DNA of 64,000 nt from Escherichia phage vB_EcoM_AYO145A: sequence record KR014248. The stretch is one strand, 5' to 3'. Positions 5,448 to 50,764 of the stretch are shown piece after piece. The translations under genes were made by a program, and so were the position numbers. Within the stretch, counting starts at the first letter, position 1, and each line of letters opens with the position of its first letter. A model generated the notes under the pieces. That model was given only the letters and a program-made list of their open reading frames with translations. It was not told the DNA's origin and made no database searches.

Positions 5448-5523
5448 GGGGATGTAGTTTACATGGTTAAAACATAAGTTTTGCAAACTTAAGTACAGGG
5501 TTCAATTCCCTGCTTCTCCACCA
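5448..5523 (+). tRNA. tRNA-Ala (anticodon TGC), CCA encoded
   Basis: Acceptor GGGGATG/CTTCTCC (one mismatch), anticodon stem TAAGT/ACTTA loop TTTGCAA, T-arm CAGGGTTCAATTCCCTG. Confidence 0.65.
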
Positions 5524-5529
5524 ATTAGT

Positions 5530-5604
5530 GCATCCATAGTTTAAACGGGAAAATTACAGTCTTCCAAACTGAGGTTGAGGGTTCGATTCCCTCTGGATGC
5601 TCCA
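5530..5604 (+). tRNA. tRNA-Gly (anticodon TCC), CCA encoded
   Basis: Acceptor GCATCCA/TGGATGC, anticodon loop CTTCCAA, T-arm GAGGGTTCGATTCCCTC. Confidence 0.7.
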
Positions 5605-5610
5605 AACAAT

Positions 5611-5687
5611 GCTGCTTTCGTATAATTGGCTATTACACATCCCTTGTAAGGATGGAAATGCAGGTTCGAGTCCTGTGAGCAGCACCA
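5611..5687 (+). tRNA. tRNA-Thr (anticodon TGT), CCA encoded
   Basis: Acceptor GCTGCTT/GAGCAGC, anticodon stem CATCC/GGATG loop CTTGTAA, T-arm GCAGGTTCGAGTCCTGT. Confidence 0.75.
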
Positions 5688-5690
5688 ATT

Positions 5691-5778
5691 CAGAGGTCAA
5701 GTGAAAGACCGCTTTGAGTCAACTGAAGACCGTAACAAATTCCACGGAGTTGAGTTAGCGGCACAACTCCAGACCTCT
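5691..5778 (+). ncRNA. long imperfect hairpin element (AGAGGTC ... GACCTCT) containing GAAGACC box and inner hairpin GGAGTTG/CAACTCC
   Basis: Inverted repeats read directly; lies between tRNA-Thr and tRNA-Val; related motif content to U elements. Confidence 0.3.
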
Positions 5779-5783
5779 TTCAT

Positions 5784-5858
5784 ACTCGCTTAGTTTATAT
5801 GGTAAAACATCACCCTTACAAGATGAAGAAAAAGGTTCAAGCCCTTTAGTGAGTACCA
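5784..5858 (+). tRNA. tRNA-Val (anticodon TAC), CCA encoded
   Basis: Acceptor ACTCGCT/AGTGAGT, anticodon loop CTTACAA, T-arm AAAGGTTCAAGCCCTTT. Confidence 0.65.
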
Positions 5859-5859
5859 T

Positions 5860-5937
5860 GTTCCAGTATCCCAATTGGCAGAGGATGCAAGCTCAAACCT
5901 TGTATTAGTGACGGTTCGAATCCGTCTTGGAACACCA
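5860..5937 (+). tRNA. tRNA with Leu anticodon CAA, class-I architecture, CCA encoded
   Basis: Acceptor GTTCCAG/TTGGAAC, D-arm TCCCAATTGGCAGAGG, anticodon stem GCAAG/CTTGT loop CTCAAAC, T-arm GACGGTTCGAATCCGTC, A73. Confidence 0.6.
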
Positions 5938-5942
5938 ATTTT

Positions 5943-6018
5943 GCAGGATTAGTTCAAATGGAAAGAGCAACAGTCTACGAAGCTGTTAATAGGGGTTCGA
6001 ATCCCTTATCCTGCGCCA
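5943..6018 (+). tRNA. tRNA-Arg (anticodon ACG), CCA encoded
   Basis: Acceptor GCAGGAT/ATCCTGC, anticodon stem ACAGT/GCTGT loop CTACGAA, T-arm AGGGGTTCGAATCCCTT. Confidence 0.8.
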
Positions 6019-48236: not shown

Positions 48237-49277
48237 ATGGAGAAGTATACATTAACAAAACTTCCCGATTCAGTTACACATGTCTTTATTGACTCTGACA
48301 GTATTGCCTATAAAGGTGCTTGTGTAGTTGAGAAAGCAAAATATAAATATGTCAATAAACTCACAGCAGAAGAGTCTGAATCATTTGATAATGCAAAAGA
48401 TGCTGCAAGATGGTTAGCAGACCAGAGAATCCTTGTAGAAGAGCTTGGCCTAGCATTTGATGAAGATGAATGGGAAAGACAGACTTGGAAAGAAGCTAAG
48501 AGTGAAAAAGAAGCTATCATGGCTACTCAGCAGGTTCTTCAGGAATGGCTTAAGGTTGTTGGTAAAGAAAGAACTTGGGTAGGTTATTTAACAGAGAAGG
48601 GTGTACATAAACATAAAGACATTAAAGGTCTTGAGCACCAATATCAAGGTAACCGTAAAGATGCTGTCACACCAACACACTTAGTTGCTTGTCGTGAATA
48701 TCTTTTATCCAGACCAGAGTTCAAGCTCTTAAGGGGTGGCTTCGAAGCCGATTCAATCGTAATTGCTAAAGCTGAAAAGATGGGTAAGAAAGCTGCTCTT
48801 ATGAGTATTGACAAAGACCTTCGACAAGCTGAAGGGACTTATTGTATTGATATGACTTATGAAAAGTCACCACTAATTTTTATTGCTGACAATAATGTTG
48901 GTGATATCTGGGATTGCCCTATCAAATCAAAACCAAAAGCTGCAAAAACAGTTGGTGTAGGTTTTAAATTCTTGTGTTATCAGGCTGTTGCTGGAGATAA
49001 TGCAGACAACTACTTCGGCCTTAAAGGTGCTGGAAAAGTAGCTGTGATGAATGCTTTAGATGGTAAAGAGACCTACAAAGAGTGTCTTGATGCTATCTAT
49101 GAACTCTATGCTAAAAAAGACTCTTATACCTATGTGTCATGGGATGGACAGACTGTTACAAAGACACCGTTAGAGTTAATGGAGCAGCATTTCTGGGTGG
49201 CATATCAAGAGAGAAATCCAAAAGATAATTTCTCTTTTAAGAAATATAATTGGGAGCCGTGTATGAATGAAGATTAA
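48237..49277 (+). CDS. 5'-3' exonuclease / flap endonuclease (FEN-like)
   Basis: Motifs VFIDSDSIAYKG, GFEADSIV, SIDKDLRQ resemble FEN/PIN catalytic acidic clusters. Confidence 0.55.
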   Translation: MEKYTLTKLPDSVTHVFIDSDSIAYKGACVVEKAKYKYVNKLTAEESESFDNAKDAARWLADQRILVEELGLAFDEDEWERQTWKEAKSEKEAIMATQQVLQEWLKVVGKERTWVGYLTEKGVHKHKDIKGLEHQYQGNRKDAVTPTHLVACREYLLSRPEFKLLRGGFEADSIVIAKAEKMGKKAALMSIDKDLRQAEGTYCIDMTYEKSPLIFIADNNVGDIWDCPIKSKPKAAKTVGVGFKFLCYQAVAGDNADNYFGLKGAGKVAVMNALDGKETYKECLDAIYELYAKKDSYTYVSWDGQTVTKTPLELMEQHFWVAYQERNPKDNFSFKKYNWEPCMNED

Positions 49278-49764
49278 AGGATTTGGCAATTGCCCAACCT
49301 ATGGTCATTGGGTATCTTTATGTGGGGAAGTTGACCCCACTAAACATTTTGGTTTTGTCTATTTAGTGCACTGTAAGAAAACCGGACAATATTATATAGG
49401 AAAGAAACAGCTTAACAGTGTGACAAAAAGAAAAGTTGCTGGGAAGACTCGGAAGAAGGTAGTCACTAAGGAGAGTGATTGGATGACTTATGAGACTTCT
49501 TCTGAGTATATTAAAAAAGATATTGAGAGCTTTGGAAAAGAATTTTTTGACTTTTACATTATTCAGACCTACTACACAAAAGGTGGCCTAGTCTATGGTG
49601 AAGCAAACCTTCAACATAAATTCGATGTAATGACAAAAAGGATTGACTCGAAGCTCAGACTCTTCTACAATGCCAATATTGCAGCAATTAAGTTTATTAC
49701 TAAAGAAACTTATGAAGATGCTGAAAAAAGAATCCATAAGGTAATGAAAGCAAACTGTGCTTGA
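49267..49764 (+). CDS. GIY-YIG-like nuclease domain protein (possible homing endonuclease)
   Basis: FGFVYLVHCKKTGQYYIGKK matches GIY-(10 aa)-YIG spacing. Confidence 0.4.
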   Translation: MKIKGFGNCPTYGHWVSLCGEVDPTKHFGFVYLVHCKKTGQYYIGKKQLNSVTKRKVAGKTRKKVVTKESDWMTYETSSEYIKKDIESFGKEFFDFYIIQTYYTKGGLVYGEANLQHKFDVMTKRIDSKLRLFYNANIAAIKFITKETYEDAEKRIHKVMKANCA

Positions 49765-49770
49765 TAACTA

Positions 49771-50016
49771 TTGAGAGAGAATAAAATGTTTAACAAAAGC
49801 AAAGCTGTGAGTCATGTAGCAAAAGTTGACAGCAAAATTGAAGAACTTGAGCGCATCCTTGCAAATGCTAGAGAGTCAATAATCAAAGAAGTTGAAGCTG
49901 TTGAATCTCAAATGCAGCACCTAATGCTTAAACGTCAAGAGCTACGTGAGCATCTGGAATATATTGAAACACGAGAGCTAAAGGTTAACAGATTTTTAAG
50001 GAGTCCAAATGTTTAA
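49771..50016 (+). CDS. hypothetical coiled-coil protein
   Basis: ORF track. Confidence 0.45.
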   Translation: MRENKMFNKSKAVSHVAKVDSKIEELERILANARESIIKEVEAVESQMQHLMLKRQELREHLEYIETRELKVNRFLRSPNV

Positions 50017-50764
50017 CTCAAGAGAAGCAGTAAAAAACTGGAATCTTCGTTGTGGAAACACTCAAAAGCAGCCTTACAGTGATGAGTATTGGGAATCTTT
50101 AAAATCCCAGTCTCTGTGTATGCTTGAAGAAGCAAAAGAGCTTGTAAAAGCAATTGAAGAGAAAGACCCCATTGAGACACTGGATGCTCAGGCAGATTTG
50201 CAATATGTTCTTGACGGTTTGATTTACCTGTCACAACATGACCATAACGGTGCTATGAAAGCTGTTTGCCATAATAATGACCTGAAGTATACAGATGACT
50301 ATGAAGAAGCTTTAAAACGTCTTGCAGATATTGAGAAGCGTACTGGTCAAGAGTGTATTATCAGAATGTCAGTAGTTGATGGTAAAGAATGGTATGCGAT
50401 TGTTCGTGCAGCCGATGGGAAGATTATGAAGCAATCAAATCTCCCTAAAGTACAGCTTGGTGAATACATTGTAGAACTTGAAAGCCAAGAACTTTTTGTG
50501 GTAGTATCTGAGACATGCGTTATCTGCAAAGGTATTGTAGATAGCTTAAAGGATTTGGGTGTAGATGGTTTTGTAGAAGTTAATCCAATTACCTCTAAAG
50601 CAGATAAAGACTTCTGTAAAGAGAATGGACTATGGATTGCAGATATTATCTACTATGATGGTGAGCAGTTCCATGTAACCTCATACCCGAAACTGAATTA
50701 TGATGCTAATAACCTGAAGTGCTGGTTAAAAGGGGTTGGTTATAATGGATTCACAGAACATTAA
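50009..50764 (+). CDS. hypothetical protein with MazG-like nucleotide pyrophosphohydrolase-type N-terminal helix pattern
   Basis: LEEAKELVKAIEE...DLQYVLDGL resembles EExxE...D metal-binding helices; weak. Confidence 0.35.
   Translation: MFNSREAVKNWNLRCGNTQKQPYSDEYWESLKSQSLCMLEEAKELVKAIEEKDPIETLDAQADLQYVLDGLIYLSQHDHNGAMKAVCHNNDLKYTDDYEEALKRLADIEKRTGQECIIRMSVVDGKEWYAIVRAADGKIMKQSNLPKVQLGEYIVELESQELFVVVSETCVICKGIVDSLKDLGVDGFVEVNPITSKADKDFCKENGLWIADIIYYDGEQFHVTSYPKLNYDANNLKCWLKGVGYNGFTEH

Follow-up and report, generated by a model that had tools for sequence, protein, structure and literature searches.

The locus considered here raises the question of whether a small nuclease gene lying directly behind a phage exonuclease gene is a mobile intruder or a long-standing resident of its operon. 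It is found in a 64,000-nucleotide stretch of DNA from Escherichia phage vB_EcoM_AYO145A (record KR014248; the whole stretch is referred to as the window), in which an open reading frame (ORF) of 165 amino acids at positions 49267-49764 starts within the end of a 5'-3' exonuclease gene and encodes a GIY-YIG protein. An earlier note on this DNA had proposed that the ORF is a free-standing homing endonuclease placed between conserved genes, and had kept a non-mobile GIY-YIG domain protein as its fallback. It is the fallback that agrees with the results, as the gene is fixed in position, consists of the nuclease domain only and diverges together with its neighbours. The ORF is most likely a former homing-endonuclease nuclease domain which is now a fixed core DNA-processing endonuclease co-expressed with the exonuclease. 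The complete reading, in which the ORF specifies a SegE-type GIY-YIG enzyme predicted to be catalytically intact, is a vertically inherited core gene and processes DNA together with the exonuclease, is held with moderate confidence.

Assignment of the protein to the GIY-YIG nuclease fold and family is almost certain. The profile comparison called for in the earlier note returned the Pfam family PF19835 (SegE_GIY-YIG) at 97.4 bits against a cut-off of 25 (E-value 9.4e-28), aligning residues 21-138 with profile positions 10-123 of 123, and PHROG 447 matches the protein from end to end (E-value 4e-48); three PHROG families named 'homing endonuclease' match more weakly. The canonical GIY-YIG spacing read from the sequence is borne out, with F30-V31-Y32 and Y43-I44-G45 placed so that 10 residues lie between Y32 and Y43 (HFGFVYLVHCKKTGQYYIGKK), and so is the overlap of the ORF start with the upstream gene (Table 1). 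An affinity to T5orf172 had also been considered; the Pfam scan at E <= 1 gave PF19835 alone, leaving PF10544 unmatched. NCBIfam gives only a sub-threshold hit, to a group I intron endonuclease at 12 bits.

Position and inheritance of the gene

The position of the gene was followed in a locus census made up of 27 IMG/VR loci anchored on the neighbouring exonuclease gene together with FelixO1, phiEa21-4 and Arno18, and in all 30 loci the GIY-YIG gene is found immediately downstream of the exonuclease gene. An orthologue also holds this position in SUSP1, SUSP2, Arno18-like Pectobacterium phages and a Yersinia phage, and the gene is present in every lineage of the Andersonviridae sampled, namely Felixounavirus, Mooglevirus, Suspvirus, Kolesnikvirus and the Arno18-like phages. 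GenBank phage records holding proteins of at least 80% identity number 251 for the GIY-YIG protein and 255 for the exonuclease. The 5-kilobase region around the ORF is 97% identical to genomes of Salmonella and Escherichia Felixounavirus phages such as UAB_Phi87 (257 matching records), the window itself being a Felixounavirus, and in each genus the GenBank count for the GIY-YIG protein is at least as high as that for the 5-kilobase DNA query. Outside the lineage, Pakpunavirus PAK_P4 encodes a homologous exonuclease without such a gene after it. The variation in presence and absence among related phages that a mobile gene had been expected to display was not seen, the gene standing at this position in all relatives examined. 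The earlier note had itself set such universal presence against homing, and because universal presence is what was found, the homing reading fails on its own terms.

The sequence divergence of the gene follows that of the genes on either side. In Mooglevirus and Suspvirus the GIY-YIG protein is 86-87% identical to that of the window, compared with 90-92% for the exonuclease and 75-80% for the MazG-like pyrophosphatase encoded further downstream; the corresponding values are 62%, 54% and 38% in phiEa21-4, and 51%, 51% and 38% in Arno18. The divergence thus tracks the flanking genes and shows no incongruent history. In pairwise comparisons of 28 relatives (Nei-Gojobori), the ratio of nonsynonymous to synonymous divergence (dN/dS) amounts to 0.036 in the GIY-YIG gene, 0.05 in the exonuclease gene and 0.09-0.11 in MazG, and purifying selection on the GIY-YIG gene is strong. 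Across the Felix O1 lineage (Ounavirinae together with the Arno18-like phages; Andersonviridae) the short form belongs to the core genes, within the operon for replication and nucleotide metabolism, and it is very likely not a currently mobile homing endonuclease.

What comes and goes at this junction is a different gene. An insertion of about 490 base pairs lies between the exonuclease and GIY-YIG genes in 13 of 28 Felixounavirus and Mooglevirus loci, and encodes a free-standing homing endonuclease of about 175 amino acids with HNH_3 and AP2 domains (ORF106 of Felix O1; another example is locus L001, 5001-5525), which in Felix O1 overlaps both of its neighbours. The window is without this gene and has an empty site at 49265-49277. 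The insertion arrangement envisaged in the earlier note therefore does occur in relatives, at the exact intergenic position that it had in mind, but the inserted gene is HNH-AP2 and not GIY-YIG; the two differ in fold, and the HNH-AP2 gene is present in only those 13 close relatives and is flanked by a tract of raised divergence. The tract extends from the 3' portion of the exonuclease gene into the initial approximately 130 nucleotides of the GIY-YIG gene, with a length that varies between genomes; it is centred on the junction of the two genes and looks like the co-conversion or immunity tract of a homing endonuclease. One locus, L027, has the diverged tract with the HNH gene absent and may be a recombinant or an immune allele. 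A divergence tract combined with a sporadic HNH gene is the pattern expected of homing, and the GIY-YIG gene is therefore a flanking resident. Within the operon, synonymous divergence is greatest in the exonuclease gene (median dS 0.77), which is consistent with allelic exchange around the HNH site.

The wider family contains both short and long forms. An exhaustive profile search collected 2,266 cluster representatives at E <= 1e-3, and the lengths are bimodal: the 274 full-domain members include 140 that consist of the domain only and 122 that are extended C-terminally by at least 80 amino acids. Of 150 members, 40 have a detectable NUMOD3, and some have other modules of the helix-turn-helix (HTH) type. 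The SegE-type family as a whole is derived from homing endonucleases, about half of it with C-terminal NUMOD3 or HTH modules, and the long forms have the classic homing-endonuclease architecture, which the window protein does not share. The DNA-binding domain for which a search had been suggested is missing from the window protein by Pfam, which gives no second domain, and the short-form hidden Markov model (155 positions) leaves about 10 of the 165 residues over. A split homing endonuclease with its partner encoded next door was also looked for, and phmmer comparison of five neighbouring small ORFs with 277 family members gave no match. The nearest 13 relatives are all short forms on a neighbour-joining tree of the 150-residue domain, a tree which is noisy and in which some 'short' metagenomic proteins are possibly cut at contig ends.

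The possibility that the gene is nevertheless an active free-standing homing endonuclease of the Seg type, which cuts genomes without the gene and copies itself and its flanks into the break, takes its appeal from the long family members with NUMOD3 and HTH architecture, the interleaving of short and long forms on the domain tree, the overlap with the upstream gene and the several GenBank records that carry the annotation 'GIY-YIG homing endonuclease'. It is very unlikely given that presence/absence polymorphism was not found in the 30 loci or in the paired record counts, that the protein lacks a DNA-binding module and none of the small ORFs nearby is similar to the C-terminal domains found in long members, that the divergence of the gene is congruent with its neighbours under strong purifying selection, and that the divergence tract has its centre where the HNH gene is inserted rather than at the GIY-YIG gene. 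T4 SegE and SegD, from the first of which the Pfam family takes its name, have a GIY-YIG catalytic domain in common with the window protein, whose long relatives also resemble them in combining a nuclease with a DNA-binding tail. Through intronless homing the T4 Seg genes enter phage T2, from which they are absent (PMC1564403). The T4 Seg proteins have 205-222 amino acids with a C-terminal HTH detectable in SegD, whereas the window gene is domain-only and fixed; T4 SegE scores 36.5 bits against PF19835, over the second half of the profile only, and BLASTP relates it to the window protein at an E-value of 0.36.

Predicted structure and active site

The AlphaFold2 model of the 165-residue protein (predicted local distance difference test score, pLDDT, 91.7; predicted template modelling score, pTM, 0.86) has the GIY-YIG alpha/beta fold. 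Its best structural match is the I-TevI catalytic domain (1LN0, score 6.8), followed by the PD-T4-3 restriction enzyme (9U75, 5.3), the N-terminal domain of UvrC (1YCZ, 4.4) and T4 endonuclease II (EndoII; 2WSH, 4.3), with Eco29kI and Slx1 scoring below the last of these. The elements of the model run in the order beta1 with the GIY motif (strand 29-36), beta2 with the YIG motif (strand 42-48), a basic beta-hairpin at residues 50-69, a helix, beta3, a helix carrying E112, and then N135. The protein is basic (isoelectric point 9.5). It is a plain member of PF19835/PHROG 447, a family of the Ounavirinae, T4-like cyanophages and other myoviruses, and has the invariant residues and the basic-hairpin insertion of that family.

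Sequence comparison alone does not lead to I-TevI. A search of all PDB chains with the protein and with a 150-sequence profile gave no meaningful match, and hhalign, comparing the family profile with the catalytic domain of I-TevI, gave a probability of 1.7% with only the GIY-YIG strands aligned; the two share 16% sequence identity and profile methods do not connect them. The window protein differs from I-TevI in its extra N-terminal strands and C-terminal helix, in the absence of a linker, zinc finger and HTH, and in having the basic beta-hairpin instead of helix alpha-1, which in I-TevI carries R27 and H31. In the model the hairpin appears to stand where I-TevI has this helix, and because the helix is replaced an equivalent of R27 is not assignable. 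E112 is predicted to be equivalent to E75 of I-TevI from the order of the secondary-structure elements, while K46, K47 or K64 may be candidate substitutes for R27; K46 and K47 are invariant and K64 near-invariant in the alignment of short forms.

The alignment of 150 diverse family members has ten invariant residues (G29, Y32, Y43, G45, K47, W72, Y75, S78, E112 and N135), and because they are invariant over such diversity the catalytic set is under family-wide constraint. The protein is predicted, with fair assurance, to be an active nuclease. It has also been considered that it could be a relic which has lost catalysis and persists for some other function, for instance in DNA binding or regulation, a reading to which the lack of an identified canonical arginine and the exchange of helix alpha-1 for a hairpin lend some substance. 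It is extremely improbable, as both tyrosines, Glu112 and Asn135 are invariant in the 150 members, long homing-type forms included; because the catalytic residues are kept across the family in this way, replacement of the helix is a family trait and not decay.

Possible roles beside the exonuclease

If the enzyme is active, the GIY-YIG protein would bind DNA without reading its sequence, using its own lysine-rich beta-hairpin, and the site formed by Tyr32, Tyr43, Glu112 and Asn135 would nick, or make structure-dependent cuts in, intermediates of phage replication or recombination. The neighbouring exonuclease would then act on these cuts, as might happen when DNA is debranched before packaging or when replication depends on recombination. 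A structure-specific or nicking role of this kind with the exonuclease is put forward tentatively. In the annotation of Felix O1 no other resolvase or endonuclease is listed apart from polymorphic HNH genes, and no nuclease Pfam domain is present among its 41 non-structural hypothetical proteins; the GIY-YIG protein being the sole conserved endonuclease candidate of Felix O1 is a weak point in favour. Should the enzyme be structure-specific or nicking, it would illustrate cleanly how the catalytic domain of a homing endonuclease can be domesticated for a core function in replication. As a functional precedent for GIY-YIG genes that are fixed, T4 EndoII (DenA) comes closest, a non-mobile, domain-only GIY-YIG protein of 134 amino acids that acts as a tetramer and serves phage DNA metabolism.

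A closer parallel to that enzyme, or to T7 gp3, would have the protein nick or cut host DNA for the exonuclease and so feed the pathway of deoxynucleoside monophosphate (dNMP) kinase and ribonucleotide reductase. This is unlikely. The model is structurally nearer to I-TevI than to EndoII and shows no specific EndoII relationship, and no modification of the phage DNA that could shield it from an enzyme of this kind is known. A further objection comes from SUSP1 and SUSP2, Felix O1-like 'superspreaders' that release intact, transformable plasmid DNA, which their authors credit to the absence of hydrolytic endonucleases (PMC5241400). Both phages encode an ortholog (L042, 41633-42133 in SUSP1; L043, 2124-2624 in SUSP2), labelled 'putative homing endonuclease' in GenBank, and the SUSP1 protein is 87% identical to that of the window with all conserved residues kept. 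Because these phages carry the ortholog yet release intact plasmids, indiscriminate degradation of host DNA is unlikely, and either the GIY-YIG enzyme spares plain duplex DNA or the published superspreader explanation is incomplete. That explanation of plasmid release depends on the substrate range of the conserved GIY-YIG domain, and this bears on phage therapy and gene transfer.

A role in conflict has also been weighed, in which the nuclease would cleave competitor phages, satellites or foreign DNA, or counter host defence, with specificity from its own motif preference or from a partner. Phage nucleases derived from homing endonucleases are reported to have been repurposed in this way in ICP1 (PMC8263062, PMC8096241), and the GIY-YIG defence enzyme PD-T4-3 is the second-best structural match of the model. 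PADLOC, however, has no match for the protein, no partner was found among the neighbouring small ORFs, the gene is in a replication operon and not in an accessory region, and such extreme conservation with a low dN/dS is not what genes in an arms race typically show, which makes this reading decidedly unlikely.

Short SegE-type genes (encoding 148-177 amino acids) are also seen in metagenomic T4-like contigs (L035, 5001-5534; L037, 5001-5447; L038, 5001-5474), where they are located in a variable region with a gp46-like SMC_N/AAA_23 gene on one side and a T4_baseplate gene on the other, 3' of the gp46-like gene. S-RIM2 has a short homolog near nrdAB and talC, and about 390 cyanophage GenBank records hold a homolog. 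It is conceivable, though doubtful, that domain-only SegE-type proteins in general are a widespread but so far unrecognised class of housekeeping phage endonucleases, repeatedly domesticated from homing endonucleases, and are the missing debranching/junction-resolving (or nicking) enzyme of Felix O1-like and many T4-like marine phages.

Several points weigh against the view of the gene as a fixed DNA-processing partner of the exonuclease. The short homologs of T4-like marine phages do not adjoin an exonuclease, and because they sit elsewhere the exonuclease link is lineage-specific and not general. The canonical catalytic arginine (R27 in I-TevI) has not been located, and both activity and chemistry are predictions. 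The subfamily contains no characterised protein, T4 SegE being a marginal relative, and the absence of another resolvase is only as firm as the sensitivity of Pfam. The census covered 30 sampled loci, supplemented by record counts. In one relative, L031, which matches phage EC6 (BFVD entries K4IC63 and K4I3J2), the gene (5489-5990) is split by a frameshift in a run of A into ORFs of 87 and 91 amino acids (ATTAAAAAAGA); the frameshift either results from an error in sequencing or makes this copy a rare pseudogene.

In GenBank the gene goes under the names 'GIY-YIG homing endonuclease', 'NAD synthetase' and 'hypothetical protein'. These labels are spread over more than 250 phage genomes, and none of them suits a nuclease that is fixed and domain-only. 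The 'NAD synthetase' label, which is attached to PHROG 447 and many GenBank records, was rejected: neither Pfam nor NCBIfam gives an NAD synthase or ATP-pyrophosphatase match at E <= 1, the GIY-YIG family being the sole match. The literature searched contained no paper that discusses this gene in the Ounavirinae, and the Felix O1 genome paper lists only six HNH genes. The gene as such is already known, an ordinary catalogued member of a curated family for which proteins 100% identical to that of the window are deposited; what is modestly new is its recognition as a fixed, domain-only and probably domesticated nuclease that bears on the statement that superspreaders have no endonuclease.

Operon setting and neighbouring features

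The features of the locus are collected in Table 1. According to the annotation of Felix O1, the operon contains dNMP kinase, primase-helicase, exonuclease, GIY-YIG, MazG and nrdAB genes, and in the window the GIY-YIG gene is followed by a small coiled-coil ORF and then by the MazG-like pyrophosphatase gene (Pfam, PHROGs). Against the Pfam 5_3_exonuc models the exonuclease remains below threshold (14.7 and 12.1 bits).

Table 1. Features of the exonuclease/GIY-YIG locus, with positions in the window
Feature	Position	Strand	Remarks
GIY-YIG gene, 165 amino acids, domain-only SegE-type	49267-49764	+	ATG start; stop TGA 49762-49764, TAA directly after
Exonuclease/GIY-YIG overlap, 11 nucleotides	49267-49277	+	Uninterrupted junction; empty site for the HNH-AP2 gene of relatives
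GGAG Shine-Dalgarno motif within the exonuclease coding sequence	49252-49255	+	11 nucleotides 5' of the GIY-YIG ATG; read from sequence
5'-3' exonuclease gene, T7 gp6-like, 346 amino acids	48237-49277	+	PHROG 107 exonuclease, E-value 1e-63
GIY (F30-V31-Y32) to YIG (Y43-I44-G45) motif block, beta strands 1 and 2	49354-49401	+	Alignment and model
Lys/Arg-rich beta-hairpin, residues 46-69, 10 K/R and 1 D/E in 24 residues	49402-49473	+	Model strands 50-55 and 64-69; charge count
Codon of E112, predicted catalytic glutamate (I-TevI E75 equivalent)	49600-49602	+	Invariant in alignments A1, A2, A3; helix 105-118
Codon of N135, predicted metal-site asparagine (I-TevI N90 equivalent)	49669-49671	+	Invariant in A1, A2, A3
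Divergence tract	48637-49400	.	HNH+ relatives 73-87% nucleotide identity, 95-100% in flanks; 100-nucleotide sliding identity, 28 loci

The exonuclease and GIY-YIG genes are co-transcribed, and translation of the second is probably coupled to that of the first. The 11-nucleotide overlap of the two is also found in SUSP1 and SUSP2, and phiEa21-4 and Arno18 have one of 8 nucleotides. From its sequence and placement, the GGAG motif would be the ribosome-binding site of the GIY-YIG gene. A simple scan gave no terminator-like hairpin at the junction, and no strong promoter of its own was seen just upstream of the GIY-YIG gene, the number of sites in a consensus scan not exceeding that in shuffled sequence. 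The opposite strand over the ORF has no ORF of note, only one of 49 amino acids; Rfam has no match between 47000 and 52000, and the repeats at the locus are trivial.

The coiled-coil ORF that follows (49786-50016, 76 amino acids, phrog_4442) evolves far faster than its neighbours, with 42-50% identity in Mooglevirus and Suspvirus against 86-92% for the GIY-YIG and exonuclease proteins, and its homologue is undetectable in phiEa21-4 and Arno18. A direct repeat of 25 nucleotides (80% identity, 49784-49808 and 50007-50031) extends across the start codons of this ORF and the MazG-like gene, both proteins beginning with MFN, and may represent a shared translation-initiation region or chance.

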